A DNA stretch of 64,000 bases from an uncultured virus (IMG/VR IMGVR_UViG_3300031760_000053) (lineage: Duplodnaviria > Heunggongvirae > Uroviricota > Caudoviricetes). Positions 22,658 through 39,994 of the stretch are shown piece by piece; position 1 is the first letter of the stretch; each line of letters starts with the position of its first letter. The translations under genes and the position numbers were made by a program. Location: IMG/VR virus record IMGVR_UViG_3300031760_000053; one strand, written 5' to 3'. The notes under the pieces are model-generated. The model was not told the origin of the DNA and did no database searches. It worked only from the letters and a program-made list of their open reading frames with translations.

Positions 22658-23272
22658 CTATCCCCATATATTCCAGTGGTCTTTGGAAGAATATCCATCT
22701 TGTACATCAGCTAGCTGTACAAAAGTTTTCTCACTAAGTATGCTGAAGAAGACATTGTAAGCTCCTTCCATAACATTAAAATAATAGTTAACGTTACGAC
22801 GAGGATTGGGTATCAAGCTAGTGTAGCTCTCGTTCGTACCGAGCTTACCTACCATTTCCATCAGCAGCTTTGCATTACGGCTAACACTCTTCTCAGTTGT
22901 ATTGTAATCATAAGTTACAACTTTCCTCTTGATGTCATACCAGAACCGTTCATTCGTCAGAGTAGGATTAGTGAAACGAATACAGTCAGCTGTACAGAAT
23001 ATAGCCATATCTCTGGTGTCAAACAACGCAAGAGGATAAGACTGGAACTTCTGCGGTTTGCTATAGTAGTCTAGAACGTGAGTGATTTTTCTGTACATCT
23101 CACGCCCACATTTCTTACTTGCCTTCATAAGCGGCAAGTAACTATTGCGATACGTTGCTCTGAGTACTGCATCTCGTTCATTGCCTTTCGGCATAACAGC
23201 TGCCACCTGAGCTGAAGCCTTCATAATAATCTCCAGCTGTTTCTGTTGTTTATGATTTAGAAGATAAACCAT
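22658..23272 (-). CDS. hypothetical early protein
   Basis: 204-aa ORF, GGAGG RBS. Confidence 0.65.
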   Translation of the reverse strand: MVYLLNHKQQKQLEIIMKASAQVAAVMPKGNERDAVLRATYRNSYLPLMKASKKCGREMYRKITHVLDYYSKPQKFQSYPLALFDTRDMAIFCTADCIRFTNPTLTNERFWYDIKRKVVTYDYNTTEKSVSRNAKLLMEMVGKLGTNESYTSLIPNPRRNVNYYFNVMEGAYNVFFSILSEKTFVQLADVQDGYSSKDHWNIWG

Positions 23273-23283
23273 ATACCCTCCGT

Positions 23284-23317
23284 AGCAACAGGGCTAGATA
23301 TTACTAGCTCTGTTGCT
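23284..23317. repeat. CTAG-apex intergenic hairpin 1
   Basis: agcaacagggCTAG-atatta-CTAGctctgttgct. Confidence 0.8.
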
Positions 23318-23322
23318 CTGTT

Positions 23323-23610
23323 TTATTTTGCAAGTTCTGTCAAGAAAAATATCAAAGACCTAGCTCTAGGCTCTTTGATTGTTTCCCAAGGCAACTTCTT
23401 GACATACACATTACCCAAGACCTTTACAGCTTCACGAGCTGCTTCTACTGTTACATAGCAGATGTCATTTTTCAGACACGTTGAGTATGAAAACTCATAC
23501 TTTCCATTCTCGTTCCGCTTCTTGAACTCCAAGTAAAGCCTATAGCAATTCGGCATTACTTTTCTCTGAACCAGATACACAGCTCTGTATTCTTCCTTCC
23601 GTAACAACAT
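23323..23610 (-). CDS. hypothetical early protein
   Basis: ORF, AAGGAGG RBS. Confidence 0.6.
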   Translation of the reverse strand: MLLRKEEYRAVYLVQRKVMPNCYRLYLEFKKRNENGKYEFSYSTCLKNDICYVTVEAAREAVKVLGNVYVKKLPWETIKEPRARSLIFFLTELAK

Positions 23611-23612
23611 AG

Positions 23613-24059
23613 TTATACCTCCTTTGTAATTTTGAAGCCAAGCGTTCTCATCTCATCTATCTGAGTGTCAGTCCACACGCCTTCACCTTCTTTGTAATCC
23701 AAGTCAGCACACGTCTTGCGTGTGCTGACTAATGCTTCCTGAGCCGCTTCGTTATGTAACGTAACGGTTGTACCTAAGTTCTTATGTTCAAACCGTATAG
23801 CTTTAGCAACCAACCTTGCAATACTCTCTTGCTCTTCTGCTGTACCCTTGATGTACACCTCCTCATCATAAGTTACTTCTCCTACCAAAGTAACAACCTT
23901 TACCACAATAGCATAGTAGCCATCACCACCTACAGTCCGTTCCTGAACCTGTAAATAGTGATAATGACCAGCCCACAATCCAAGTGGAAAATCCCTTGAC
24001 CGCTTTTTAATCACGGTAATAATCTCTTCCATAGAAATCTCCTTGGTATCTAGTACCAT
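23613..24059 (-). CDS. hypothetical early protein
   Basis: ORF between hairpins; start may be MEEII (AAGGAG). Confidence 0.6.
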   Translation of the reverse strand: MVLDTKEISMEEIITVIKKRSRDFPLGLWAGHYHYLQVQERTVGGDGYYAIVVKVVTLVGEVTYDEEVYIKGTAEEQESIARLVAKAIRFEHKNLGTTVTLHNEAAQEALVSTRKTCADLDYKEGEGVWTDTQIDEMRTLGFKITKEV

Positions 24060-24062
24060 TCA

Positions 24063-24087
24063 AGTAGCCTAGATGTACTAGGCTACT
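24063..24087. repeat. CTAG-apex hairpin 2
   Basis: agtagcCTAG-atgta-CTAGgctact. Confidence 0.85.
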
Positions 24088-24095
24088 CAAGAGTA

Positions 24096-24350
24096 TTAGA
24101 TTCTCTTAAAGATTGCTGCAAGTCCCTCTGCTATAGGGTTATCCTTGTAGCTGAACTCTGCAAGTTGCTTGTCTGCTTCACAGTAGATGTGAAGTACACG
24201 CTCACCTTTCTCATTAAGTACATCAAACTCCCAACCATAAGTTACTGGTCGATACTTTGTTGCCCATCCACTGCAATCAACTCCCTTGCTTTCAAGGTAG
24301 TTCTTACCTGACACGTAAAAATCAAGTTTCAATCTCTGTGCGATATTCAT
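24096..24350 (-). CDS. hypothetical early protein
   Basis: ORF, GGAGG RBS. Confidence 0.6.
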   Translation of the reverse strand: MNIAQRLKLDFYVSGKNYLESKGVDCSGWATKYRPVTYGWEFDVLNEKGERVLHIYCEADKQLAEFSYKDNPIAEGLAAIFKRI

Positions 24351-24682
24351 TACAGCACCTCCTGCTTATTGATAATTCTTATTGGCTTAATCTTCTTAGC
24401 CAATATCCATTCACCGCCCTGACTTTCGGGGCGGTCATAAGTTGTGAAGTCCTCGACCTCCAACTCAATCCAGACCCTCTGCTGTCCGCTTGCCAGCTGC
24501 TCCTTCAAGTGTGGAGCAACAGGCTTGAAGCAGCAGTGAAAGCCCTCACGAACTGCAAAGCCTTTAGTAGGATAGCAGCCAGCTATCATCTGCTTCCCGA
24601 ACTCAAAAGCCTGATGCTTATTGATGAATAAAGGATAGCACTTGCCATCCTTACCAAGTCTTACTAGCTTGTACGCTTTCAT
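24350..24682 (-). CDS. conserved hypothetical phage protein
   Basis: AYKL...YPLFI...GFHC...APHL...QGGEW pattern; AAGGAG RBS. Confidence 0.7.
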   Translation of the reverse strand: MKAYKLVRLGKDGKCYPLFINKHQAFEFGKQMIAGCYPTKGFAVREGFHCCFKPVAPHLKEQLASGQQRVWIELEVEDFTTYDRPESQGGEWILAKKIKPIRIINKQEVL

Positions 24683-24719
24683 ATCAATCTCCTTAGTAGC
24701 CTAGATATACTAGGCTACT
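24683..24719. repeat. CTAG-apex hairpin 3 with conserved RBS block
   Basis: atcaatctcctt-agtagcCTAG-atata-CTAGgctact. Confidence 0.85.
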
Positions 24720-24729
24720 TATATTCTCT

Positions 24730-25107
24730 CTACAATAACTGCTTGAGGTCTTTCGCAGTTATTGGTTTGACTTTCTCTACATTAAAGTAGATGTCCATAC
24801 AGTAGAGCTTTATCTCTCCACGCTTCCACAACTCTAGTTGAGTGTCACTGGGCTGCGTGTAAGCATCATCTACTAATGTAGATACAAGAAACTGAACAGC
24901 CTCTCCGTCTTGATAAGCTGTTATTTTCACATCATCCTTGTCCATATAGAACCCATCAGCGATAAGAGCCTTGAGTTCTTCCTGAGTTTCAAAGGTCTTC
25001 CTGTAAAGGTTACTAGGAAACTCCTGTGTAGAAATATCCATAGAGCAACCTTTCTCATAGTCGTCTTCTGAAACATCAACAAAACCATTGCTTATTCTAT
25101 AAGCCAT
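24730..25107 (-). CDS. acidic early protein, distant paralogue of 26417..26815
   Basis: shared YE.G, FET.E.L and W....LY motifs. Confidence 0.7.
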   Translation of the reverse strand: MAYRISNGFVDVSEDDYEKGCSMDISTQEFPSNLYRKTFETQEELKALIADGFYMDKDDVKITAYQDGEAVQFLVSTLVDDAYTQPSDTQLELWKRGEIKLYCMDIYFNVEKVKPITAKDLKQLL

Positions 25108-25178
25108 ATCAATCTCCTTGGGTTAGTTAACCCACACGCTACACTAGAGATGACTAGTGTAGCAATGCGTTAGCTAAC
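25108..25178. repeat. CTAG-apex composite element 4 (attC-like geometry)
   Basis: - strand GTTAGCTAAC-GCATT-GCTACACTAG-tcatct-CTAGTGTAGC-GTGTGG-GTTAACTAAC-CC-AAGGAG. Confidence 0.85.
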
Positions 25179-25497
25179 GCCTGAACTCTTCTGCCTTCAA
25201 CGTGTTGAACAAATCAAACACACTGTAGACACCTTCTTGAAGGACTGCTAAATTATAAGTCCCTTTAGCAACCTCCATATCAACCTTTAGGTCTATGAGC
25301 TTTTCCATCTTTACATACTCACACCCTGCAATAACGCTGCTAGGATATGTCGAGCAGCACAGCTCTCTGCCGTCTTTCTCAAACCATATCTTCTCTCCTT
25401 TTCTGCAGAGAGCTGCTGCCACTATGCCTTTGAACATATAACCCGTGTAGTTTTCTTCCCACGGGTTCATCTTAAACGGATTTATTCTATAAGCCAT
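25174..25497 (-). CDS. hypothetical early protein
   Basis: AAGGAG RBS; begins MAYRI like its neighbour. Confidence 0.65.
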   Translation of the reverse strand: MAYRINPFKMNPWEENYTGYMFKGIVAAALCRKGEKIWFEKDGRELCCSTYPSSVIAGCEYVKMEKLIDLKVDMEVAKGTYNLAVLQEGVYSVFDLFNTLKAEEFRR

Positions 25498-25534
25498 ATC
25501 AATCTCCTTAGTAGCCTAGTATATCTAGGCTACT
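25498..25534. repeat. CTAG-apex hairpin 5 with RBS block
   Basis: atcaatctcctt-agtagcCTAG-tatat-CTAGgctact. Confidence 0.85.
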
Positions 25535-25549
25535 TAATAGTAATATCAC

Positions 25550-25822
25550 TCAACTGAGAATTGCCTTTGCGAATTCCTCGTCGAACTCTTCGTCATCTTC
25601 GTCCTCGTTTTTAATACCAAGACTGTCATAGATATCATCTCTCCCAAACCATAAGAGGTCGTTAATGTCTTGCAGCCTTGGTGTTTCACCAGCGTAATAG
25701 TCTGTAACGAATGACTCCCATTCATCAAGCTTGCCTTCTGCTTTGATGCGCTCCATAGTGCTAACAGCACCTTGCCAAAAATTGTTGACATCTGTTACGT
25801 CAACATCATTACGTACTTCCAT
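25550..25822 (-). CDS. acidic conserved phage protein
   Basis: FWQGA...INDLLWF...IYDSLGI pattern; strongly acidic. Confidence 0.7.
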   Translation of the reverse strand: MEVRNDVDVTDVNNFWQGAVSTMERIKAEGKLDEWESFVTDYYAGETPRLQDINDLLWFGRDDIYDSLGIKNEDEDDEEFDEEFAKAILS

Positions 25823-25892
25823 ATCAATCTCCTTGGGTTATCTAACCCACACGGCACGCTAGTTATCTAGTGTGCCAATGTGTTAGACAACT
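25823..25892. repeat. CTAG-apex composite element 6 (attC-like)
   Basis: - strand GTCTAAC-ACATT-GGCACACTAG-ataa-CTAGCGTGCC-GTGTGG-GTTAGAT. Confidence 0.85.
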
Positions 25893-25916
25893 ACTTGTTG
25901 TCTTTCTCTTCAAGAG

Positions 25917-26114
25917 TTACTTAATTAAATACTCAAATCTAGCACCAAAGCACCAGTAAATTTTGCTCTTCGGAATACTTACAACGTCGTACGCTTTCTC
26001 AGGAATGGAGAGTCTTTCCGCCTCTTTTTTAGTGAACAGTTCATTCCTTATAAGAAAGCGGTCGTCCTTTATTCTTTTCTGGTCGAACTCTGGTTTAACC
26101 TTACAATAAATCAT
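25917..26114 (-). CDS. conserved small phage protein
   Basis: VKPEFDQ...NELFT..E...YWCFGARF; GAGGAG RBS. Confidence 0.65.
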   Translation of the reverse strand: MIYCKVKPEFDQKRIKDDRFLIRNELFTKKEAERLSIPEKAYDVVSIPKSKIYWCFGARFEYLIK

Positions 26115-26119
26115 ACGTG

Positions 26120-26407
26120 TTACTCCTCGTCGTCGTTGTCTTTCTCTTCAAGCAAGCCCAACTCTTCAAGCCTGCTATCTGAAATCAAACCCTTGTCCAA
26201 GTCCTGCAGCACCGCATCCATTATGAAGTTCTCTTCAGCAGCCTGTTCAAGTGATTGCAATCCTGTTCGACAATCCAAGATTTTATAGAGCCATTTTTCA
26301 TCTCTACCGTTGATTTGTTCTACAAGAGTAAGCTCGTCCTCTGTGCAAACATCGTTGTCCAGTAAAAATATCTCGAATCTATCAATAAACATAGTTCCGT
26401 ACTCCAT
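26120..26407 (-). CDS. acidic conserved phage protein
   Basis: TEDELTLV..ING...RTG..SLEQ pattern; AGGAGG RBS. Confidence 0.7.
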   Translation of the reverse strand: MEYGTMFIDRFEIFLLDNDVCTEDELTLVEQINGRDEKWLYKILDCRTGLQSLEQAAEENFIMDAVLQDLDKGLISDSRLEELGLLEEKDNDDEE

Positions 26408-26416
26408 AGTAACCTC

Positions 26417-26815
26417 CTACCAAATCTCAACGCCCTGTTCTGCGAGGGCTTTTAACTCATCATCAGTAACATCTTTAAGAACGATGTCAACTCTGCGTGA
26501 GTAGAGTTCCTGTTTGTCTTCCTGCCAAGCAGCTTTCTCTTCGGCTGTCGCTGCTCGGAAGGTAGTGCCATTACCTTCACGAGCCACGATGTCCTCAGCA
26601 CTCAGAGTGAAATCGTCGCCCCAATCCTCACCTATCCAGTGAGATTCCGACCAATCAATCGGGCAAGTAACGAACTTGCTTACAAGTTCATTGAGCTGCT
26701 CGACTGTTTCAAAGCTCGACTTGCCAAGAGCAAGAGTCTGGAAAGCGACCCACTTCTGTGTTCCTTCCTCGTATTTTTCGAGGTAGAATTCCTCAGTAGC
26801 TTCTTTGACTACCAT
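26417..26815 (-). CDS. acidic early protein
   Basis: AAGGAG RBS; E/D-rich. Confidence 0.7.
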   Translation of the reverse strand: MVVKEATEEFYLEKYEEGTQKWVAFQTLALGKSSFETVEQLNELVSKFVTCPIDWSESHWIGEDWGDDFTLSAEDIVAREGNGTTFRAATAEEKAAWQEDKQELYSRRVDIVLKDVTDDELKALAEQGVEIW

Positions 26816-26886
26816 AGTAATCTCCTTGGGTTAACCAACCCACACGGTGCACTAGCATACCTAGTGTACCAATGTGTTAGTCAACT
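26816..26886. repeat. CTAG-apex composite element 7
   Basis: - strand GTTGACTAAC-ACATT-GGTACACTAG-gtatg-CTAGTGCACC-GTGTGG-GTTGGTTAAC. Confidence 0.85.
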
Positions 26887-26888
26887 TG

Positions 26889-27287
26889 CTAGAACCAACA
26901 GACTACCTTACCTACTGTTGACCAGTAGAAATCTACGACCTCTTGCAAGTCGTAGGTATATGTATACCTACCGTACTTAAATAGGCAATCATCGGTCTGC
27001 TCATCGTACGTAATACCGAGAGCATTGATAGTGAACTGTAATATCTCTGCATCGGAAAACATAAAGCCATACATATCGATGGCATAAAAGCCTAACCCTA
27101 CTGCCCAGTCCTCACAGACGGCAGGTGTTAAGTTGCTCACACCCTTTTGAGTGCGAACTTTGTCACGAACCTCTGCCATTGTTTTACCGTGCTCTGTAAC
27201 GAGTCCAACTACATAAGCCTTAATAGCCTTAGCAACCTGATTGCGACGTGCAATAGTCATCAATCTTCTAGGTCTAATGTTAACCAT
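26889..27287 (-). CDS. hypothetical early protein
   Basis: start moved to MVNIRP after the AAGGAGATTGAT block. Confidence 0.65.
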   Translation of the reverse strand: MVNIRPRRLMTIARRNQVAKAIKAYVVGLVTEHGKTMAEVRDKVRTQKGVSNLTPAVCEDWAVGLGFYAIDMYGFMFSDAEILQFTINALGITYDEQTDDCLFKYGRYTYTYDLQEVVDFYWSTVGKVVCWF

Positions 27288-27358
27288 ATCAATCTCCTTG
27301 GGTTGTCTAACCCACACGCTACACTAGGTAACTAGTGTAGCAATGTGTTAGACAACTA
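27288..27358. repeat. CTAG-apex composite element 8 (best attC-like copy)
   Basis: - strand GTCTAAC-ACATT-GCTACACTAG-ttac-CTAGTGTAGC-GTGTGG-GTTAGAC (RYYYAAC...GTTRRRY). Confidence 0.85.
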
Positions 27359-27359
27359 A

Positions 27360-27701
27360 CTACTCATCAGCTATCTGTAGTTCAAAGCCTGTCAGACTCT
27401 CAAACTTATCCTTTTGCTCCTCGGTGTATTCTCCTGAATAGTACACCTCTGAGCAAAGGCAATTAGGTCTGATGTCTGTCTTGTCTATGTCTAACCCTGC
27501 GACATAGATAGCTGTTTCAATGCAGTAGCTCCAAAGGAACTCACCGTTGAGTTCAATCCTATTCTCAAGGTCAGCGGCGTAATCGCGTACCAATTCTTTC
27601 CACGCTGTAGAAAGAATGTTGCTGTCCATACCTGCAAACATTGCCTTAGCATCATCTGTTGATACCTGCAAAAGAACTGTTGCCAACTTATCCATATCCA
27701 T
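27360..27701 (-). CDS. acidic hypothetical protein
   Basis: AGGAGG RBS. Confidence 0.65.
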   Translation of the reverse strand: MDMDKLATVLLQVSTDDAKAMFAGMDSNILSTAWKELVRDYAADLENRIELNGEFLWSYCIETAIYVAGLDIDKTDIRPNCLCSEVYYSGEYTEEQKDKFESLTGFELQIADE

Positions 27702-27738
27702 AGTAGTACCTCCTAGTACTATAAAAAATATATATTCT

Positions 27739-27759
27739 AGCAGGGCTTTAAGCCCTGCT
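27739..27759. promoter_or_regulatory. GC-rich hairpin, similar to the one at 19579-19596
   Basis: agcagggct-tta-agccctgct versus gcagggc-tttc-gccctgc. Confidence 0.55.
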
Positions 27760-27766
27760 TACCTAC

Positions 27767-28345
27767 CTAAAACTCATTGAACAAAACCTTTATGTATCGC
27801 ATCAACGAAAAAGGTTTGTCTACAGGAACTTTAACCTGCTTATAGTTACCCTCAAGCCACGGCTCTCCGTTTATGATACGGAATTTCACGGCATAAGGTA
27901 ACAATCTACAAGCTGATTGCATACGGAGCATTGTACTCCAAGTTAAGTACTCGCTGTGTAAGATACAAGTAACATCTTTTACTTCACCATCGAAGAAGTT
28001 ATCAAAGCTGACTCCAAACAAATACGAGTCGTAGTACATAGCATCTACCCCGTGTCCGAAGCTACTTGATAGCCAAGTGTTCCTATCTACATAGTAGTAG
28101 CTGTTGACAGTACCTCTTGCTTTAACCTTCAAGAGTTCATACCGCATCCTACTAGCAAGAGTTCTTGTAATCTTTCTACTCTCGTGGAAAGACATCGTTT
28201 TCTTTTGTCTTACTAGACAATAGAAACTCTCCTTTGAAGTTCCCTTTAGATACTCTGTGTACTCTTTAGCAGAGTTCTCTGTTGAGAACGAAGCTTTAGT
28301 AACCTCGCTCTCTCTTATGCCTATCGCAACATAATACTGTTTCAT
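27767..28345 (-). CDS. hypothetical early protein
   Basis: AGGAGG RBS. Confidence 0.65.
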   Translation of the reverse strand: MKQYYVAIGIRESEVTKASFSTENSAKEYTEYLKGTSKESFYCLVRQKKTMSFHESRKITRTLASRMRYELLKVKARGTVNSYYYVDRNTWLSSSFGHGVDAMYYDSYLFGVSFDNFFDGEVKDVTCILHSEYLTWSTMLRMQSACRLLPYAVKFRIINGEPWLEGNYKQVKVPVDKPFSLMRYIKVLFNEF

Positions 28346-28364
28346 TCCAGTACCTCCTAGTACT

Positions 28365-28808
28365 TTATTTTACGAACTCTTTTACAAGTCCGTCTTTTGA
28401 AAATCCATAAGAGATGTATACAATCTCTTTGCCTTTGTCCTGTTTCCAGAGGGCAACCCCTCCGTCGTATAGGTTTCCGTCGTGTCCTTCCCAAGCCTGT
28501 CGCTTAGTAATAACCCACAACGTTTCACTACTAGTATGGAGTTCGTCTTCAACAAACTCTATACTGCCGTCGTCAACTATACTATCATTGTCTACGATAG
28601 TATGCCCGTCTTCGTCTACTGGATACACTGTGAAGCACAGCTCTCCATAGTGGTCGAATACATTGATGTCAAACTCTTTGTCGCCATCAACATAGCCAAG
28701 CCACTCATCATCGATGTTGAGTGGAAGCTCTCCCACTTCAACCAAATCCCTCTTGCCGATTGCGGCAAGTACCTTGTAGCAGTTCGCTTCTTTCTTTAGA
28801 AAGACCAT
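28365..28808 (-). CDS. acidic hypothetical protein
   Basis: AAGGAG RBS. Confidence 0.65.
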   Translation of the reverse strand: MVFLKKEANCYKVLAAIGKRDLVEVGELPLNIDDEWLGYVDGDKEFDINVFDHYGELCFTVYPVDEDGHTIVDNDSIVDDGSIEFVEDELHTSSETLWVITKRQAWEGHDGNLYDGGVALWKQDKGKEIVYISYGFSKDGLVKEFVK

Positions 28809-28820
28809 AGCTTTGCTCCT

Positions 28821-28880
28821 TTAGTTACTTGAGTAACTATTCAACAGCCCTAGATTACTAGGACTGTCAAGGGTTACTAA
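28821..28880. repeat. CTAG-apex composite element 9
   Basis: tagttact-tg-agtaacta small hairpin; acagccCTAG-atta-CTAGgactgt; outer agtaac/gttact. Confidence 0.75.
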
Positions 28881-28882
28881 AG

Positions 28883-29290
28883 TTACTTTGTAATCTCTTC
28901 AACCTCATACTCTTTGCTTGTTTCAAAGAACCTGTCGCACTTTGAGAGTGCTTTTTTGTAGCACTCTTCATTATCTGGCTCTCCCAGATAATCATAAAAG
29001 TTATTGTCTATCAAGATACCTACTAGCATCTTATAGTAGGCTCTGGCTTCAAAGCCGAAGTCAAACACCCTTATAGTGTTGTCAGCTGACTGAGGGGCAA
29101 CCACAATCTGTTTCAGGTTGCTATCAAAGTACATAGCGACATAGAAGTTGTCGTGGTCGTCATCGTGAGTCCCACTCCACTCACTAACGAGCTTCTTTGT
29201 GAGTGGAGTGCCGTTGTTCTCCATTGCGTACGTGTCGCTTCCATAACGTGCGTTGTATTCGCACCCTTCCATTACTCCGAAGTGTAACAT
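28883..29290 (-). CDS. hypothetical early protein
   Basis: AAGGAG RBS. Confidence 0.65.
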   Translation of the reverse strand: MLHFGVMEGCEYNARYGSDTYAMENNGTPLTKKLVSEWSGTHDDDHDNFYVAMYFDSNLKQIVVAPQSADNTIRVFDFGFEARAYYKMLVGILIDNNFYDYLGEPDNEECYKKALSKCDRFFETSKEYEVEEITK

Positions 29291-29302
29291 CTTAAACTCC
29301 TT

Positions 29303-29360
29303 GTTGCTCTAGCAACTATTCAAGCACACTAGAATTACTAGTGTGCTTGAGGGGTACTAG
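29303..29360. repeat. CTAG-apex composite element 10
   Basis: gttgct-ct-agcaac; tcaagcacaCTAG-aatta-CTAGtgtgcttga. Confidence 0.8.
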
Positions 29361-29491
29361 AACCCTGCTACGTCTACTGACGTTGCGTCGTAGTCGTAGA
29401 TGTTAATTGAGTAGCCGTGAATACCTGCCACGGCTGCAGCCACTAGCAAAACACTAAGAATTATTCCTAGCACAGCTATGCTTTTTGTCAT
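29357..29491 (-). CDS. small TM peptide
   Basis: MTKSIAVLGIILSVLLVAAAVAG; GGAGG upstream. Confidence 0.45.
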   Translation of the reverse strand: MTKSIAVLGIILSVLLVAAAVAGIHGYSINIYDYDATSVDVAGF

Positions 29492-29621
29492 ATCTCTTGC
29501 CCTCCCAAGCAAGCTGTATGTATAGGGAGTATGCTCGCTCCCTGTCGAGCTTTCTTTCAATAGCGTACGGTGTTAGTGCCGCACGCAATCTTTCACAAGC
29601 AATGTCTAACTCGCTCATCAT
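29454..29621 (-). CDS. small hypothetical protein
   Basis: MMSELD start after AAGGAGATTG. Confidence 0.55.
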   Translation of the reverse strand: MMSELDIACERLRAALTPYAIERKLDRERAYSLYIQLAWEGKRYDKKHSCARNNS

Positions 29622-29631
29622 CAATCTCCTT

Positions 29632-29697
29632 GCTGTTAACCAGCTATGCAAACAGTACTAGCACTAGGCTAGTACTGTTCACGGGCGGGTCAACTAG
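29632..29697. repeat. CTAG-apex composite element 11
   Basis: aacagtaCTAG-cactagg-CTAGtactgtt with gctg/cagc small hairpin. Confidence 0.75.
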
Positions 29698-30023
29698 ATG
29701 TCGTATACACACTCAGGGTTTCTTATGTCTACCCTAAGCCACTTTAACTGGAAGCCCTCTGGAAGTGTCTTCGCTCCCTCAGGCAAGCGTCCACCAATCA
29801 ACTGGCACACAAAGAGTGTATCACCGTAGTTGAGAGAGACTGTCTCTCTGTTGAAGGGGAAGCCAGCTACATTAGCAGTGTCCTGATGTCCGATGATACT
29901 CTTAGCACCATTCTCAAACGCCTTGCGAGCGTCGTCCTCTGAGCAAGGAACTGTACGAACATCGGCAACGAAGTCGCATCCTACTAGCATCTGTAAACTA
30001 AAACCATTTGTGATGTACTCCAT
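29694..30023 (-). CDS. DUF1874 / STIV B116-like protein, candidate AcrIII-1 ring nuclease
   Basis: YITNGFSLQML, SIIGHQDTA (GH motif), FNRETVSL.YGD, QL.GGRLPEG match the DUF1874 pattern. Confidence 0.75.
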   Translation of the reverse strand: MEYITNGFSLQMLVGCDFVADVRTVPCSEDDARKAFENGAKSIIGHQDTANVAGFPFNRETVSLNYGDTLFVCQLIGGRLPEGAKTLPEGFQLKWLRVDIRNPECVYDI

Positions 30024-30058
30024 AGTTGTAGCGGGGATACTGACCTCCCCGCAAGGTC
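30024..30058 (-). promoter_or_regulatory. H-type pseudoknot in RBS position (copy D)
   Basis: GACC-UU-GCGGGGA-GGUC-AGUA-UCCCCGC-UACAACU-AUG. Confidence 0.65.
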
Positions 30059-30077
30059 TTAAAGTTTTTTTTGTAGT

Positions 30078-30137
30078 TGGGTTAACAACCCATTCAAGTA
30101 GCCTAGTATTTCTAGGCTACTTGAATGGGTTGTTAAC
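30078..30137. repeat. CTAG-apex element 12, perfect 26-bp stem
   Basis: gttaacaacccattcaagtagcCTAG-tattt-CTAGgctacttgaatgggttgttaac. Confidence 0.9.
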
Positions 30138-30451
30138 TAGAGGCGTTTCGCTGCTGCTATAGCAACCTCGTACGCCTCTTCGTTGCTTATAGGTTCGTCC
30201 TCTGAAAGTTCCTCAAGAACATCGCTTATCTTTTTACAAAAGACTATCGCCTCTGCCTTGTCTTCAAAAGCAATAGCCTTTTCCATACTTTCTGACGCTA
30301 CTACATAGCAACCGCTGTCCACGTCTTTAACGACTCCGACATAAAGGTCGTCGTCTGGAAAAGCACTGAATGAAGTCATTTCACAATATGTTATGACTTC
30401 GTTGTTAATATTAGCAAGAACTACACAGCCTTCAATTTCTAATTCTTTCAT
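30137..30451 (-). CDS. acidic hypothetical early protein
   Basis: 104-aa ORF; no SD at normal spacing. Confidence 0.65.
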   Translation of the reverse strand: MKELEIEGCVVLANINNEVITYCEMTSFSAFPDDDLYVGVVKDVDSGCYVVASESMEKAIAFEDKAEAIVFCKKISDVLEELSEDEPISNEEAYEVAIAAAKRL

Positions 30452-30487
30452 ACAAGTAGCGGGGATACTGACCTCCCCCGTAAGGTC
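30452..30487 (-). promoter_or_regulatory. H-type pseudoknot in RBS position (copy C)
   Basis: GACC-UUACGGGGGA-GGUC-AGUA-UCCCCG-CUACUUGU-AUG. Confidence 0.6.
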
Positions 30488-30501
30488 TAAAAAATGTTGT
30501 T

Positions 30502-30560
30502 TTGGATTAGCAATCCATCTAGTAGCACTAGAATTCTAATGCTACTAGGAGAGTGCTAAG
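30502..30560. repeat. degenerate CTAG-apex element 13
   Basis: tggatt/aatcca small hairpin; ctagtagca-CTAG-aatt-CTAA-tgctactag. Confidence 0.65.
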
Positions 30561-30962
30561 CTACTCTTCGTCTAGTGGTGTGTTAAAGCACCACCACAGG
30601 AAGTTCTCTCTCCACTCGTCATACGAGCGAGGGAAGCCGTCCATTCTCAAGACGGCTAAAAAGTGGTTTTGCTCTCGGAGCTTGTCGAGTTTTGCGAGGC
30701 ACTCGTACACTCTGTATCGAGCAACCTCCCAATCCATATCAGCACACCACCAATGCGCCTGAGCAGCTGCTCTCTTAATGTTCCTACTAGAACCATAGTA
30801 GGCTCTAGCATCGAGGTACTGCTCCTTATACTCTCTTGCAAGGCGGTTAGCTTCTCTTACGAGAAGCTGAACCTCGTCTTGAGGGTTTAAGCCGATAACG
30901 TCCTGCCCCATAAGAGTAATGCCGTCAGCTATCAATTCAAAATCAACATCAAACTTTGCCAT
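30561..30962 (-). CDS. hypothetical early protein
   Basis: 133-aa ORF. Confidence 0.65.
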   Translation of the reverse strand: MAKFDVDFELIADGITLMGQDVIGLNPQDEVQLLVREANRLAREYKEQYLDARAYYGSSRNIKRAAAQAHWWCADMDWEVARYRVYECLAKLDKLREQNHFLAVLRMDGFPRSYDEWRENFLWWCFNTPLDEE

Positions 30963-30993
30963 AGTAGTCGCTCGCTTAACCGCCAGCTAGGTC
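30963..30993 (-). promoter_or_regulatory. H-type pseudoknot in RBS position (copy B)
   Basis: GACC-UAGCUGGC-GGUU-AA-GCGAGC-GACUACU-AUG. Confidence 0.6.
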
Positions 30994-31003
30994 TGTAAAA
31001 TTA

Positions 31004-31060
31004 TGGGTTTAACTAACCCACTCGGCACACTAGCCCTACTAGTGTGCCAATGTGTTAGCT
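31004..31060. repeat. CTAG-apex composite element 14
   Basis: - strand AGCTAAC-ACATT-GGCACACTAG-taggg-CTAGTGTGCC-GAGTGG-GTTAGTT. Confidence 0.85.
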
Positions 31061-31730
31061 AAAAGAGCTTACTTATTGCCTGAGCATACTGCTCAGCGTT
31101 CAAGATTCCACTCTTGAACAGGTCTGTTAATACAGCCGCTCTGGCTGTATTGTCTACCTTAGGCTGTACGGGCTGTGGGGCAGGGGTTACCTTTGGAGCA
31201 GGGGTGTATACAGGCTGTGGCTGTGGCTGTGGCTGTGGCTGTGGCTGTGGAGCTGGCATACCGAAGCACATCGGTATCTCGCTAAATGTCGGCAAGCCAC
31301 CTTTAGCCTTTCTGAAGAGCTTACTTAGCTTTTCACAGAGTCGCTCCATATCAGTCCAAAGGTACTGACATTGAGGGCGGAAGCGTCCAAAACAGGTGTC
31401 CAATGTCGGTGCACCCATACGTCCCGACCCTCCCCACATCTCGATGGCTATAACAAGAGAGATTTGTGTAGTGTTGAGAAACTTTCTCAGCTCCTTGACA
31501 GAGCTATCTTCCTCGTGGCTAGTAAGCCACTCAAGAAGCCAGTGCCTGTTCTTCTTAGCCTCCTCAGGCGACACGTCCCCCTTGTACATAGCTAGGGCTG
31601 GTATAGCCCTCTTTGCTTTGTGGCAGTATGCCATAAAGGTGTCCCAGTTAACAGGCTTGATAGCCTGCTCTACAGCAGGCTTAGAAGTTGCCTTGCAACC
31701 AGCCGCAAGAATATCCTTTGTTATAAACAT
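31059..31730 (-). CDS. first early gene; PQ linker and C-terminal SHOCT-like domain
   Basis: (PQ)n linker; LTDLFKSGILNAEQYAQAISKL resembles SHOCT. Confidence 0.7.
   Translation of the reverse strand: MFITKDILAAGCKATSKPAVEQAIKPVNWDTFMAYCHKAKRAIPALAMYKGDVSPEEAKKNRHWLLEWLTSHEEDSSVKELRKFLNTTQISLVIAIEMWGGSGRMGAPTLDTCFGRFRPQCQYLWTDMERLCEKLSKLFRKAKGGLPTFSEIPMCFGMPAPQPQPQPQPQPQPVYTPAPKVTPAPQPVQPKVDNTARAAVLTDLFKSGILNAEQYAQAISKLF
31213..31248. repeat. (GGCTGT)6 in-frame microsatellite encoding PQ repeats
   Basis: six exact hexamer copies. Confidence 0.9.
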
Positions 31731-31763
31731 AATAGTAGCTCGCTACTAGCCGCCAGCTAGGCT
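31731..31763 (-). promoter_or_regulatory. H-type pseudoknot in RBS position (copy A)
   Basis: AGCC-UAGCUGGC-GGCU-AGUA-GCGAGCUA-CUAUU-AUG. Confidence 0.6.
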
Positions 31764-31783
31764 GAGAGATATAGTTGCCTACG

Positions 31784-31827
31784 CAACTAATCAAACCTTT
31801 AAGTAGTCTTAAAGGTTTGATTAGTTG
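31784..31827. repeat. perfect 20-bp hairpin in the early leader
   Basis: caactaatcaaacctttaag-tagt-cttaaaggtttgattagttg. Confidence 0.85.
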
Positions 31828-32632
31828 GGGTACTGTAACAAGAAGTACCCCCGCCCTACTAGTTGAGTTACCAACGAAAAAACCCTGCCCGATAGCCATC
31901 ACCCTACTAGTAGGATAAATCAGGTTTAGGTCTTTTTGACTGTAGGCGTCAAGTCAACTAGTTGACAGTAACAGGGGGCATAGGGCTTAACCTACACCAA
32001 AGTTAGAAGGTGTTAGTTACTATCAACAGCCATAAAATTATATCTCTGTTTTTCAGAGGGGCGGCTTTTGCTTGCGCTACTCACCGCTACTCAGCTTTTG
32101 GACTTACCCCCTTGATAGCTCTAGGGAACAGTATCCTAAGTCGGTAAATTGTCGCAAGGTTTGAAAAGGCTTTATTTCCATACGTCACCCTACTACTTAT
32201 CTGTAGCATCGGCTGTTGATTATCATCATCTAGTCTACATCAAGTATCACGCCCGCCTTATCGCGATTGTGCAAAAACTCAAGCTACTAGTAGCTTTTTG
32301 TTTACTCGGTTAACTATCTCTGTTTATAACCGCCGTGGGTTTATCGCTATGTACTTATAGCTTTTTCGCTCTAGCATTGCGCTTTTCTACTTGTTAACTT
32401 TTATCGCCTGTTAACAGGTCTATCGTCGCAATCCTTGCTAGTTCAAAAGCAACTCGTCAAGCTCGTCGCTTTATGGTTATAATATAAAGCATATACAGAA
32501 AAAAGTAAAATCCTAAGGTACATTTACACACTCACATAATTTTTTAACTAAAAACTTCAAAAAAAACCGAAAATCACGAAATCCTCGCACGTTGCTTTAT
32601 AGATAGCAACAATATCAGTAGCACCATAGGAG

Positions 32633-32812
32633 TTACTAAAATATTTTCTAAACTCGTACAAGTGCATTTTTTCAAAACGGCTTTGACCACTTCCCCCAAT
32701 ATATATGTATTTTTTATACTCTATGAGGGTATAAAATTTTTTGACGCTAGAAGTATAGGTTAAAAGGGTGTAAAAAAACTCATTTGGACGAGTTTAGAAA
32801 ATATTTTAGTAA
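32633..32812. repeat. 25-bp perfect inverted repeat around a 130-bp spacer containing the 16-bp core in reverse orientation
   Basis: arms 32633-32657 and 32788-32812; ttttgacgctagaagt at 32739-32754. Confidence 0.85.
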
Positions 32813-33031: not shown

Positions 33032-33060
33032 TTGACATATACATTTTTTTTCTATATAAT
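33032..33060 (+). promoter_or_regulatory. perfect-consensus sigma70 promoter for the packaging arm
   Basis: TTGACA (33032-33037), 17 bp, TATAAT (33055-33060). Confidence 0.85.
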
Positions 33061-33066
33061 AAAAGA

Positions 33067-33618
33067 ATGAACGTAATAAAGGTACTTTCGGACACAAAAG
33101 ATACGTTAAAGGTAGGGGAAATGACGGAGTTTCAAGGAAAATTGAAACACCGCAGCCCGAAACAGGTGGAATCGTTGGCAAATAGCTTGCTTACGGAAGG
33201 TTTGATTATGCCATTTGTGATATGGCGGCACGAAGGTAAGAACTTATTGCTTGATGGACACGGGCGATACAAGGCTATACAGTATTTAGCTGAGAAAAAC
33301 GGTGATGAAGCTGTCTTGCAACAGGACTTCCCTGTGCTATATATTGATGCTCAGACAGAGGAAGAAGCTAAAAAAGCCCTTTTACAGATTTCAAGTAGGT
33401 ACGGAAACGTTACGAGAAAAGGTGCAGCTGCATTTTGTGCTACGATACCGCAATACAAGGCTCCAGTGCTAAAACCTTTTTCGACAGACAGCAGTGCATC
33501 GAAAAAGTTTAAGGCAAAAGCGACGGACAGAACGTTGATAAAGATTTCTGTGCCGAACGATATAGCTGAGGAGATTAAAAAGATGCTTTCGGAAGTACCA
33601 TCTATAAGGATAGTGTAA
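33067..33618 (+). CDS. ParB/Srx N-terminal-domain protein
   Basis: SLLTEGLIMPFVIW...LLDGHGRYKA; next to terminase. Confidence 0.8.
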   Translation: MNVIKVLSDTKDTLKVGEMTEFQGKLKHRSPKQVESLANSLLTEGLIMPFVIWRHEGKNLLLDGHGRYKAIQYLAEKNGDEAVLQQDFPVLYIDAQTEEEAKKALLQISSRYGNVTRKGAAAFCATIPQYKAPVLKPFSTDSSASKKFKAKATDRTLIKISVPNDIAEEIKKMLSEVPSIRIV

Positions 33619-35594
33619 TGGGAAACATACTTGCGCCAACAGTGAATAAGACAGAAGCATTTGAAGAAGAGTTCAATACCACAGGAATGAAAAAGAACGA
33701 CAGTGGCGTTGAAAAAGAATCGCTAACGCAGTCTTTTAGGAAACTGCTTAATCTTCCTGCACAGGAAGATGAGATAAGGCGCAAGGACCAGAAACACATA
33801 GAACAAACGTTCTTATCGGTATATGAGATTGCGAGTAATGAAGGATTGACAGTTGCCGAGTGGGTGCAGAAAGACCCTACGACTGCTGTTGCTTATGCTG
33901 AAAACAGCGTAGCGTATTGGCAGAATATATTGACAACAGCAGCGATGACGGGTGCATTGGAAATCACCCTTGCTAATGGAGAAACGGCGAACAATCCTGT
34001 ATCAAAGAATCAAACAAAGCTGATTGAAGTAAAGATACGAGAGTGTCAGAAACAGTTGGACTTTGTAAATGAGTTGGCATTAACATCATACCGAGATGAT
34101 GAGCAGCGCAGAGATGCGTTGCAGCGTGTAATGTATAGGCGTGCTTTGAAGGGTGACACCCGAATGGCGATATACTTACACGATAGAACAGAAGGACGAC
34201 CGAGTGAGAGTAAAGTTGCGGAACTGGACTACGACTATACGTATGCTGTATGGGCGATATTGAAGACCTTGTTTGATAAGCAGCTTGAAGTGTTGAACTC
34301 TGGCTCTGGTGTACGTTTAGTATGTTGTTCCCGTCGAGCGGGAAAGACGCACTTGCTGACAGCAATAATGTTGATTGAGTGCTTACGTCGACCGAGAACT
34401 AAGGTTATGTACATTGGAGAAACAATGCTACAGTCCGAGAGTTTGGTAGACAAAGCAGCGAACGACATTATTGATGCAGCGCAGTTGCGTGACAAAAGAG
34501 GACGACGACTTGACTGGAAGCACTTGGACAATGGGTCTGAGATTATGATTCGAGGTCTTTCAAATACAAAAGACCCTGACCAGATTCGTGGACACAATGC
34601 TAAAGTCATTGTAATTGATGAGTTCTTCCATTTGAAAAGTGAATTGCTAGACTATATGCAGCAGCAGGTTTTGACACCTATGCAGATGGACTTTGCAGAC
34701 GATTATATGTTCATCTGTGCAGGAACGCCGCCGAGAATTAAGGGAACGTTCGGAGAGAAAGCATGGAACGAATGGAAAGTGCCTAAGTTCCATTGGACGT
34801 GGAAAGACAATCCGCATCCTGTAAATATGGAACAAAGGGCGGCATTTATTGAGCAGAAACTCAAGGAGCAAGGTTTGACGTGGGAAAGTTCGTTTGCACG
34901 TCGAGAATACTTAGGTGAGTTCTGCTATGACGAAGACTTGTTGCTATATCCTACCTATTATACATACGACCCAAGAGAAGCGTTACCGACCGTACAGCCG
35001 ACGAGAATTCTTTTTGGCATTGACTACGGTGTATCAGATAATGACTGTTTGATTGGCGTAGCGTGGAATGATGATGAGAATCGGGGTTATGTATTCTGCG
35101 AAGAGAAGTTCAACAGACTTGACGTACCGCAAGGTGTATCACAGCTTGAAATGCTGAGTGAAAAGATAGAACACGCTTGGTACGATGCTTTTGATTACTT
35201 CCCAGGACTTGACAAAAAAGAAGCAAATAAGAGAATATGGTTTGATGCTGATGACAATGACCAGCATTTGACAGATTACTTGAATATGAATGTACACGTT
35301 ACATACATAGATGAGCAGACACAAGAGAGAAGAAAGTTAAATCTTTCAATACAGAACGCACATAAGACAGACAAAGGCTTTATGTTCGACCGCTTGAACG
35401 ACCAATTTAGAACAAGCAACTTGCTTGTTATGAAAGGTAGTAAGCTAGAAACAGAGTTGAAATCTACAATCCGAAAGCGTGGTAGCAAGGGTGAAGTGTA
35501 CAACGAAGTTGATGATAGTGCATATCATCCAGATTTGTTACCTGCATTAAGATATGCTATGTGGAATGTAATCGGCGTTAAAGGAGTAAAGTAA
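33618..35594 (+). CDS. terL: terminase large subunit with TerS-like N-terminal extension
   Basis: SRRAGKT, VIVIDE, AGTP, REYLGEF, GIDYG, HPDLLPALRYA. Confidence 0.9.
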   Translation: MGNILAPTVNKTEAFEEEFNTTGMKKNDSGVEKESLTQSFRKLLNLPAQEDEIRRKDQKHIEQTFLSVYEIASNEGLTVAEWVQKDPTTAVAYAENSVAYWQNILTTAAMTGALEITLANGETANNPVSKNQTKLIEVKIRECQKQLDFVNELALTSYRDDEQRRDALQRVMYRRALKGDTRMAIYLHDRTEGRPSESKVAELDYDYTYAVWAILKTLFDKQLEVLNSGSGVRLVCCSRRAGKTHLLTAIMLIECLRRPRTKVMYIGETMLQSESLVDKAANDIIDAAQLRDKRGRRLDWKHLDNGSEIMIRGLSNTKDPDQIRGHNAKVIVIDEFFHLKSELLDYMQQQVLTPMQMDFADDYMFICAGTPPRIKGTFGEKAWNEWKVPKFHWTWKDNPHPVNMEQRAAFIEQKLKEQGLTWESSFARREYLGEFCYDEDLLLYPTYYTYDPREALPTVQPTRILFGIDYGVSDNDCLIGVAWNDDENRGYVFCEEKFNRLDVPQGVSQLEMLSEKIEHAWYDAFDYFPGLDKKEANKRIWFDADDNDQHLTDYLNMNVHVTYIDEQTQERRKLNLSIQNAHKTDKGFMFDRLNDQFRTSNLLVMKGSKLETELKSTIRKRGSKGEVYNEVDDSAYHPDLLPALRYAMWNVIGVKGVK

Positions 35595-38338: not shown

Positions 38339-39994
38339 ATGAGTACGATACAGTGGGAAAAAGATGTAACAGGTATGGCAGTGCCGACATTGTATCCAGG
38401 CGAAAAGAGTGACAACTGGGAAATCCCTAACAGCGTGTCTGACGAGTACCATAGGTTAAACGGTATTATAGAGAGTAAGTACAGTAAAGAGTTCTTAAAA
38501 ATCTGCGCTTTCTATAATAAGATGTTTCCATCTTTAAGAACAACAACGAGTCAGACTCCGTACAACTCTATTGCTTTTACAGTAAAAGACCAAGAGAGAA
38601 CTGATACAGGAGCAGGTACTAACTATAACTACTTAAAAGCTATAGTAGACCAGATTACATCACGATTAGGAACAATTCTTTTCCAACCAATGTTGACAAG
38701 TGAAGACCCGAACTATGAGTATGTGATATACAAAGATACTGTAGAGAGGGTTTTGAGAACATTTATTCGAGATGATAACTTCAATCGCATTTGTTTGGAG
38801 AGTTTTCACAACGCAGCTATCTTAGGATACTCACACGTATTCATAGACCCGTATACAGGAAGGCTAGTAAAAGCACCTGATTACACAATAGGCTTTTTTG
38901 AAAGCCAATTTAACCATAATAACATCACACAAATGCTGTATAGAGATTATTCTTTCCCTGTTACAGAGGTAGGATACTACTTAACAGAGTGTGATGACAA
39001 GCAAAAAACCGAAGTAATGGAATCTATACTAGGTAGAGATAGCGTAGATTTCAAGATGTACTTCGATTGTATAGCTCAAGAGGTGTATGTAACCATAGGA
39101 AGTAAGACTTTACCAGCGAAAAAGTACCCTTTTGACAAGGTTTTGATGGCTACTTTTCAATGGGATACGGGCTTTAATCGCACTCATACAACGTCAGAAT
39201 TTGACAAATTATACCCAATTCAGAGGGAAATTAACAAGATTGCAGCCAAAATCCAGCAGTTTGTAAGGCTTTATAAAGGTCCTGTACCTGTTTTTAACAG
39301 CGATATAGACCTAGTTGTAAAGCAATTAAGCAATGGAAGTGGCGAAGTATTGGTTGTAGACAGTGGTAGACCTGTAGATTCTTTAATGACTGTCATAAAT
39401 CCTACTCCATTGGACAGTCAGTTGGACGCACAGATACAGGCGTACAAGACAACGATGTTTGAATTGAGTGGAATCCAGAACAGTTCATTCGATATGGAGC
39501 AGATGCGAAGTGCGAGTGCTGTCATTGCTCTTGACCAGATGCGTGATAGCGTATTCCAAGCACAGATGAGTGCAATGAGCCAGTTCATAAAGGACGCTTT
39601 GCATTTGTACATACAGTTCTATGCAGAGTTTCCTGACTTTAGTCCAGCAGCAGCAGTTGTTGACTGGAGGACTGTAAACAATCTGATGAAGAACAGTTAC
39701 ATAGACTTGAAGCCAGTACACTTAAACGACTTTACATCGGATACGAACACAATCGACACAAAGCCGAGTGACTACATAGAAATGATGTCATCGCAATTCT
39801 TGTTGAAATTGTTGAACAACAAGGCAACTTATGATACAATACCTTATTATCTTGACCCTGCGCTTGTAACAAAGAAGGTTGCAGAAACTTTAGCGAAGTT
39901 TGCAGCGTTAGGACTTGAGATTCCGATGAGCATACATAAGTATCTGATAAGAGCGTATCTGGAAGAGATTGCTGCAGGACAAGGAGAGTTGTAA
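38339..39994 (+). CDS. putative portal protein
   Basis: 551 aa near terminase; NYLKAIVDQITSRL, PIQREINK, ELSGI...SASAVIAL portal-like segments. Confidence 0.7.
   Translation: MSTIQWEKDVTGMAVPTLYPGEKSDNWEIPNSVSDEYHRLNGIIESKYSKEFLKICAFYNKMFPSLRTTTSQTPYNSIAFTVKDQERTDTGAGTNYNYLKAIVDQITSRLGTILFQPMLTSEDPNYEYVIYKDTVERVLRTFIRDDNFNRICLESFHNAAILGYSHVFIDPYTGRLVKAPDYTIGFFESQFNHNNITQMLYRDYSFPVTEVGYYLTECDDKQKTEVMESILGRDSVDFKMYFDCIAQEVYVTIGSKTLPAKKYPFDKVLMATFQWDTGFNRTHTTSEFDKLYPIQREINKIAAKIQQFVRLYKGPVPVFNSDIDLVVKQLSNGSGEVLVVDSGRPVDSLMTVINPTPLDSQLDAQIQAYKTTMFELSGIQNSSFDMEQMRSASAVIALDQMRDSVFQAQMSAMSQFIKDALHLYIQFYAEFPDFSPAAAVVDWRTVNNLMKNSYIDLKPVHLNDFTSDTNTIDTKPSDYIEMMSSQFLLKLLNNKATYDTIPYYLDPALVTKKVAETLAKFAALGLEIPMSIHKYLIRAYLEEIAAGQGEL

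Follow-up and report, generated by a model that had tools for sequence, protein, structure and literature searches.

What are the hairpins that stand between the early genes of an uncultured tailed phage? The window analysed here is a stretch of 64,000 nucleotides (nt) from the virus record IMGVR_UViG_3300031760_000053 (Caudoviricetes), which makes up most of the genome of such a phage, and between about 23.3 and 31.1 kb it holds an array of small co-oriented genes with a hairpin in almost every longer gap. An original prediction, made from the sequence, had seen in these hairpins either attC-like sites of a gene-cassette system that acquires or shuffles anti-host genes, or an RNA-processing code. 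We found that the elements behave as RNA signals on the coding strand and that they are not integron attC sites. It is likely, with a probability of roughly 0.6, that they are T7-type processing and stabilising signals read by the RNase III of the host.

The elements and their layout

The 14 hairpins are real and far beyond chance. The pattern CTAG-N3-8-CTAG occurs 16 times in the window and 14 of these lie between 23294 and 31042 (shuffle mean 7.3). When a strict rule was applied (a CTAG apex and at least 9 of 10 Watson-Crick pairs), 13 hairpins were obtained in 23.2-31.1 kb and none in the rest of the window, while 1000 shuffles gave a mean of 0.011 and a maximum of 1; the rule excludes the 14th element, a CTAA copy at 30507-30559. 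Of the intergenic gaps of at least 36 nt, 14 of 15 contain an element, and the six short or overlapping gaps contain none, which agrees with the at least 14 CTAG-apex hairpins that had been counted before. The upstream stop codon had been placed in or beside the left arm, and it begins 17-27 nt ahead of the apical CTAG in 13 of the 14 copies. The claim that a ribosome-binding site (RBS) follows the right arm holds in part: it comes directly after the element in 11 copies, and in the other three a further leader lies between. Five copies have the arrangement xxCTAAC-5 nt-10 bp-loop-6 nt-GTT as described, including the one that reads exactly GTCTAAC...GTTAGAC (27305-27353).

On the coding strand, a long copy runs from the stop codon through a lower stem of 8-9 base pairs (bp), an asymmetric internal loop, an upper stem of 11-15 bp and a loop of 4-7 nt, and back through the return arms to the RBS. 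In type A the upper stem has 11-12 bp, the 5/6 loop is partly paired, the lower stem has 8-9 bp and a small hairpin overlaps it; most of the other long copies have a 12-15 bp stem, a 2x3 loop of the form YC/AUR and an 8 bp stem. The 14 copies divide into five of type A, four of type B, three short ones, one perfect 26-bp stem and one in which a type-B-like loop sits on a longer stem. They are listed here with the unrelated hairpin of the only long gap that has no element:

31003-31062, minus strand: long element, type A, followed by a leader and not directly by an RBS
30503-30559, minus strand: long element, type B, with a 2x3 loop UC/AUG; this is the copy with CTAA, and its predicted distal-box position holds U·G
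30077-30137, minus strand: long element, a perfect 26-bp stem without internal loop
29624-29698, minus strand: long element with a 14-15 bp upper stem, a CC/AUA loop and an extended lower stem, then an RBS
29303-29361, minus strand: long element, type B, followed by a small hairpin and then AAGGAG
28824-28881, minus strand: long element, type B, with three coding-strand G·U pairs; predicted cut 28839/28838
27300-27358, minus strand: long element, type A, which of all copies looks most like attC, spanning 49 nt (GTCTAAC...GTTAGAC) with no extrahelical base; predicted cut 27313/27312
26828-26885, minus strand: long element, type A, missing together with the following gene in relative L031 and sequencing run X4
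25835-25892, minus strand: long element, type A
25510-25534, minus strand: short element, a 10-bp hairpin directly 5' of AAGGAG, its loop inverted in L031
25120-25177, minus strand: long element, type A
24695-24719, minus strand: short element, a 10-bp hairpin directly 5' of AAGGAG
24045-24101, minus strand: long element, type B, with the loop UC/AUG, missing together with the following gene in relative L024 and runs X2, X3 and X4
23284-23317, minus strand: short element, a 14-bp hairpin directly 5' of GGAGG
27739-27759, minus strand: unrelated 9-bp GC hairpin in the only long gap without an element, probably terminator-like

For the gene at 23613-24059 (minus strand), the start of the listed open reading frame (ORF) falls within an element; the likely start is the ATG at 24032, after AAGGAG.

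Behaviour as RNA signals

The elements behave as RNA signals on the coding strand. That their structure is kept by covariation had been proposed from the differing but complementary stems, and the alignments bear this out. An alignment of 21 long copies, drawn from six sources, has 92.9% of its cells paired and two-sided change at 17 of 22 pairs, a level that none of 500 shuffles reaches. In 18 aligned close and distant copies, the paired share is 95.8% with two-sided change at all 21 pairs (0/500 shuffles), and slid controls reach 32-44%. An overlapping 4-6 bp hairpin just 5' of the RBS uses the right lower arm as its first half. It excludes the lower stem and had gone unmentioned in the original prediction; this small hairpin covaries as well (71% paired, 0/500 shuffles). 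The 5/6-nt spacing that had been noted is present, but the spacer is not simply unpaired as had been assumed, up to three of its positions pairing and covarying on the coding strand. The internal loop is conserved, with C on its 5' side and A-U on its 3' side in 16 of 18 rows.

The wobble pairs tell the two strands apart. Coding-strand G·U stands to A·C as 44:5 in the 18 aligned rows and as 56:19 when unique events are counted in 40 elements, compared with 29:22 and 22:14 in two sets of chance hairpins (total 51:36; Fisher p=0.045). The 40 elements include copies from L019 and L021 that came from a scan allowing G·U and not A·C, the other distant scan being strand-neutral, and the automatic registers used for this count sometimes cross the internal loop, which adds A·C counts.

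The shape reaches beyond the close clade. Two-stem elements were found in 8 of 10 distant relatives scanned (terminase identity about 60%), where they are intergenic and lack CTAG and AAC/GTT, and ten late-region controls gave a single two-stem hit. The distant copies sit directly after stop codons and 5' of the RBS on the coding strand, the UC/AUG loop and the small overlapping hairpin being frequent among them. The shape, with a stem of 11-15 bp, an asymmetric loop and a second stem of 8 bp, is kept while the sequence turns over; each distant relative has only 1-4 copies in the region scanned. In a whole-record search the covariance model R1 missed the distant copies, and model R3 recovered only its training copies, so the wider range of the family rests on the script scans. 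Models R1 and R3 each matched in 1 of 150 genomes of the probable host genus, Treponema, on phage-like contigs of G001 only, and L065 was shown to be phage-like. No Rfam family matched at the gathering score in the window and 15 related loci, which gave sub-threshold microRNA-type hairpin hits, and in the same set neither hammerheads nor other Rfam RNAs were found in the equivalent slots of relatives. L025 and L026, pattern matches without a protein match to the window, were dropped. In L013 (2795-7433), the intergenic hairpins share CATG/GCAT words in place of CTAG.

Could the elements act as DNA instead, either as hairpin or cruciform promoters or as operators for a phage protein at CTAG-N-CTAG? 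In two of three clear gain or loss events the element and the downstream gene move together, six listed mismatches are G·T on the template strand, and loops invert between strains, all of which would suit such a role. However, the spacing of the CTAG words varies from 4 to 7 nt and CTAG is missing in relatives, no promoter-like site and no -10/-35 match repeats with the elements, and the G·U bias belongs to the coding strand. A phage RNA polymerase was not found either, the 2486-amino-acid (aa) protein of the window having no DxDGD motif, family or PDB match, and we regard a DNA-level signal as very improbable. N4-type hairpin promoters were dropped, no virion RNA polymerase having been found. 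The ends of insertion sequences IS200/IS605, repetitive extragenic palindromic (REP) sequences, the TrpR operator and sigma70 promoters were considered and dropped because CTAG and its spacing are not conserved.

Probable processing by RNase III

An RNA-processing code was the second option of the original prediction, and it is supported by the coding-strand fold, the covariation, the G·U bias and the shape kept in relatives. The elements would be intercistronic signals in a long early transcript, cut by host RNase III as in the early region of T7; that the region forms a single transcript is our inference. RNase III would cut once, on the 3' side of the loop and 2 nt past the upper stem. The upstream piece would retain the upper hairpin as a 3' shield, and the downstream piece, losing the partner of its lower stem, would refold into the overlapping 4-6 bp hairpin and so cap its new 5' end just before the RBS. 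Hairpins at the 5' end stabilise mRNA. CTAG would be kept in the clade because it supplies C-G and U-A pairs at bp 10 and 11, where the distal box lies. The gain and loss of genes would be a side effect, arising where stops, RBSs or shared element sequence offer microhomology.

The element looks built like the RNase III signals of T7 and SP82. According to the available parts of the sources cited in this study, T7 R1.1 is a 60-nt intergenic RNA of the early region with an asymmetric 4/5 loop, and its primary cut yields 47 and 13 nt (PMC6121014); in T7 and SP82, a stem with an internal loop receives a single cut, placed downstream (PMC1935012). For the E. coli enzyme the helix minimum is 11 bp and the loop sequence is free, the distal box is U-A followed by U·G, G-C or C-G at proximal position 2 inhibits, and single cuts leave protective 3' hairpins (PMC1540722). 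Single RNase III cuts are described as common in vivo in a further study, from which no usable matrix could be taken (PMC6212723). The phage elements share with the T7 and SP82 signals an intergenic position in an early polycistronic region, a length of about 50-60 nt, a downstream RBS, an upper stem of at least 11 bp, a free loop sequence, an asymmetric internal loop, a lower stem and box-like distal and proximal pairs in one register. They lie between genes on the transcribed strand of the early region, and the layout of upper stem, loop and lower stem is seen in 10 of the 14 copies; one more is the perfect 26-bp stem, and the three short copies lack it. Among 41 genomes from the probable host genus, 37 have an RNase III above the cut-off, and G001 is one of them. 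Unlike the T7 and SP82 signals, the phage elements mostly have a 2x3 and not a 4x5 loop and carry C-G more often than U·G at bp 10. They further differ in forming a repeat family of up to 14 copies, in a right arm that doubles as a small hairpin and in the probable spirochaete host, and their processing by cleavage is a prediction.

The same reading gains from the register of the upper stem. Pairs were counted from the edge of the internal loop under relaxed E. coli rules (C-G accepted at bp 10, G·U accepted at bp 3), with the box numbering (bp 11, 10 and 3 from the cut) deduced from residue labels in the available text of PMC1540722. In the 18 rows, G-C is absent from bp 3 in 17, Y·G stands at bp 10 in 16 and U-A at bp 11 in 12. 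All three hold together in 11 of 18 rows and in 0-1 of 18 in four shifted registers, a post hoc comparison of related rows under the relaxed rules. The CTAG word would be explained because its C and T fall at bp 10 and 11; in the CTAA variant, bp 10 is U·G. The favoured register also places the 3' cut at most 1 nt from the start of the small hairpin.

Several observations weigh against cleavage by RNase III or against the evidence brought for it. The register test was framed after the pair table had been seen, and it uses E. coli rules. Of the 18 rows, 11 have C-G at bp 10, whereas E. coli prefers U·G, and 10 have G·U at bp 3, whereas E. coli prefers A-U or U-A; U-A at bp 11 occurs in only 3 of 8 rows without CTAG. 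Type-A copies lack good pairs at bp 1-2, and two short copies have 10 bp only, under the E. coli minimum. When host pre-rRNA was folded (three 16S stems and one 23S stem, from four loci), no shared motif appeared, and the three foldable pre-16S stems have neither the same loop nor CUAG. Two of the ten distant relatives, L013 and L018, show simple hairpins only. The aligned rows are related, so their counts are not independent, and in the close clade alone the strand bias is 23:11 (p=0.06). Loops are inverted between some orthologues, which means that DNA template switching can repair the arms and that part of the covariation may be mutational; template switching leaves the strand-specific wobble bias unexplained.

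Much of the evidence would be equally expected of an RNA signal that is not cleaved by RNase III. It could be an intercistronic stabiliser, or the YC/AUR loop could be recognised by some other protein or nuclease. It could also be a switch coupled to translation, where a ribosome that halts on the left arm converts the long stem into the small hairpin and so adjusts the next gene. Such a signal shares all the coding-strand evidence, and the stop codon within or next to the left arm (13 of 14 copies), the two mutually exclusive folds that both covary and the conserved loop (C and A-U in 16 of 18 rows) agree well with it; the short 10-bp copies suit a stabiliser better than a cleavage site. However, it does not predict the fixed stem length or the box-like register fit, and it has no Rfam family match. 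In the folds examined, the RBS is left unpaired by both structures and in several distant relatives it lies 15-25 nt away, which argues against a simple occlusion switch. We consider an uncleaved signal possible but rather unlikely, and RNase III processing remains the reading that we favour.

Comparison with integron attC sites

The elements are not integron attC sites, and the idea of attC-like mobile cassettes failed in every test run: the R-box consensus, the bulges, the models, the circle pairing and the breakpoints. The resemblance behind it is genuine. As in an integron or a cluster of attC sites lacking an integrase (CALIN), a palindromic site stands between co-oriented, promoterless-looking genes, with a stop codon in the left box and an RBS after the right box; AAC...GTT with 5/6 spacing occurs in 6 of the 14 phage copies and the full RYYYAAC/GTTRRRY consensus in 2. 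A trans-acting integrase exists in principle, because, in the probable host genus, 36 of 151 genomes have IntI (G001 was not over the cut-off).

Real attC sites were extracted from ten integron loci in genomes of that genus. The 22 aligned Treponema sites are 63-67 nt long, have invariant TAAC/GTTA (22/22) and carry bulged bases, which agrees with the available description (PMC3607928). The phage copies span 49-52 nt, AAC/GTT is not family-wide among them, and the upper 10-bp stems have no bulge in any of the 14, whereas an extrahelical G is described as essential for deletion between two attC sites (PMC2727003, in the part available). In these respects the original prediction had itself been correct, having noted that the sites are shorter than canonical attC, lack extrahelical bases and come with no visible integrase. 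In covariance-model searches the two kinds of site did not find each other. The Treponema attC model (R2, 22 sites) gave no hit at E<=10 in the window and 12 phage loci and found held-out attC sites at 74 and 54 bits, and the phage element model gave no hit in the ten integron loci. No tyrosine recombinase was found in the scanned ORFs of the window or in 5 near-complete relatives.

IntI makes its crossover within R', so the left box of a cassette should match the R' at its own 5' end; chimeric attC sites have been described (PMC4889954, in the part available). In real arrays this circle pairing was complete (7/7) in 41 of 48 cases (mean 6.8), and pairing within the own site was complete in 12 of 54 (mean 5.6). 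Among the phage copies, which had been pre-filtered for own pairing of at least 5 with short copies skipped, it was complete in 0 of 17 (mean 4.3), and own-site pairing was complete in 4 of 22 (mean 5.9). The phage arms pair within the site and not across the cassette.

Breakpoints between relatives

Close relatives differ greatly across the array block, and the original prediction would place such breakpoints at the recombination sites of the hairpins. None of 13 junctions could be placed at G|TT, and most lie at RBS, start or stop microhomology outside the elements. One of the 13, in L024, is unplaceable and compatible: it lies between two type-A copies and fits either homologous or IntI-type exchange. 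A crossover left of the stem was considered for L024 and dropped, and the crossover cannot be placed because L031 has this stem too, at the position of the other parent. At least three events involve elements that are absent with no residual site left, the join being at a stop/RBS overlap: 24045-24101 with the next gene, 26828-26885 with the next gene, and four elements with three genes. Other junctions are at 18-nt and 28-nt microhomologies, just after an RBS, at a truncated element or inside genes. Each event may be a gain or a loss. Among the matches listed (15 of 26), contigs of four DNA runs gave no circle-type joints, a result that says nothing on excision as contigs drop rare variants. 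With the relatives also keeping the fold without AAC/GTT, we find it hardly credible that the elements are cassette sites recombined by a host integron integrase in trans. It is equally doubtful that the type-A copies 27300-27358 and 25835-25892 double as minimal substrates for Treponema IntI in trans, besides their RNA role. If they did, a lytic phage could excise or capture early-gene cassettes, including anti-CRISPR genes, with an enzyme of the host, and the L024 hybrid would be one such event.

T4 promoter early stem-loop (PeSL) elements and intercistronic stabiliser hairpins are repeated intergenic stem-loops too. The phage elements resemble them in being repeated in a variable array with some recombination through shared sequence, and differ in having no attached promoter and in their conserved two-stem fold with a specific internal loop. 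It could be asked whether the repeats are kept mainly as handles for homologous recombination that shuffles the early genes. Two or three joins do fall in shared element sequence. They are the L024 hybrid, the X3 join (24076-25910) and a remnant at 25900-25920 (minus strand), which is the left arm of an element without CTAG, found in complete form in L024 (9513-9585), and is fused here to a duplicated 3' end of the gene 26120-26407. Gene order also differs in L065. However, most junctions lie outside the elements, distant relatives have few copies in the region scanned, and the sequence diverges while the structure stays, the opposite of what handles need; such a main role seems scarcely probable to us.

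The phage, its early genes and its probable host

The genes of the window include the terminase (33618-35594), a portal-like gene (38339-39994), a family A polymerase, an SNF2 helicase, a primase and an amidase, and no integrase was found among 56 scanned proteins. The top three of the best-matching sequencing runs are bovine gut metagenomes. The nearest annotated phage gives a partial terminase match only (24%). A relative with 87% terminase identity was binned with a Treponema genome, and another contig in the bin has seven homologues of early genes of the window and two hairpins of the element family. The host is probably Treponema, as had been guessed, and the binning is the evidence for it. 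Literature searches, whose coverage of subscription papers is limited, found no description of the phage group or the element.

The following features belong to the early region:

22658-31730, minus strand: array of some 22 small co-oriented genes of 51-223 aa, strain-variable and for the most part of unknown function
29694-30023, minus strand: gene of the AcrIII-1 / DUF1874 (STIV B116-like) family, 109 aa, with the catalytic His H46 kept
32481-32509, minus strand: candidate sigma70-type early promoter with 9/12 consensus matches, in a scan that as a whole is at chance level

The suggestion that the array carries anti-host genes is supported for one gene, 29694-30023, which alone in the array has a functional lead; the remaining genes, about 20, are unannotated or of unknown function. 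Its product is probably a ring nuclease acting on cyclic tetra-adenylate (cA4) and thus an anti-CRISPR protein. All 38 homologues carry PF08960, and a profile of them matches AFV3-109, STIV B116 and two more at E values of 2e-17 to 2e-13. The protein conserves N6, H46, R59, Q74 and R79, which match the active-site residue types named in the available part of 10.1101/778746. It thus resembles the AcrIII-1 (DUF1874) viral ring nucleases in the domain of its homologues and in its active-site residue types, and differs in that the single sequence scores below the Pfam cut-off (17.4 vs 26 bits). A further study, as far as its available part goes, appears to question the anti-CRISPR role of AcrIII-1 ring nucleases in native systems (10.1101/2023.01.10.523387). 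The gene is present in L009 and absent from L024 and L031.

Two leader families were seen in the array. A two-copy leader (30021-30050 and 30449-30478, minus strand) forms a hairpin that encloses an RBS-like GGAGG, with alternative pairing possible, and is a candidate translational control element; L009 has a plain leader in place of the GGAGG-enclosing one. The second family (30963-31000 and 31731-31765, minus strand) has a G-rich RBS-like stretch between CTAG words and occurs in three copies in L035 (60-90, 290-320 and 830-865). Upstream of the first array gene lies a hairpin-rich non-coding stretch of about 750 nt (31730-32510, minus strand) with a perfect 20-bp inverted repeat at 31784-31827; it is poorly conserved in L007, L009 and L035, has no Rfam match and is possibly a structured leader or an origin. 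At 32633-32812 an AT-rich, imperfectly self-complementary region, conserved in relatives, lies at the GC-skew switch. A perfect TTGACA-17-TATAAT promoter match stands directly upstream of the packaging genes (33032-33060, plus strand), and relative L010 has about 17 tandem seven-base units with CTAG upstream of its terminase (3066-3190). The 2486-aa protein (39994-47454, plus strand) has no PHROG, Pfam or PDB sequence match and is probably structural.

Significance

The kind of signal proposed here has long been known, and its presence in this phage is a modest surprise. A caution follows for similar arrays: AAC...GTT hairpins between small genes can mimic attC, and the pairing test for cassette circles separates the two cheaply. 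If RNase III processing is the correct reading, the elements form a natural series, with over 30 RNase III substrates from what is probably a lineage of spirochaete phages, each with a predicted cut site and a built-in protection of both products. Such a series would be useful for studying the specificity of RNase III beyond E. coli and Bacillus, and the elements could serve as parts for expressing several genes from one transcript.

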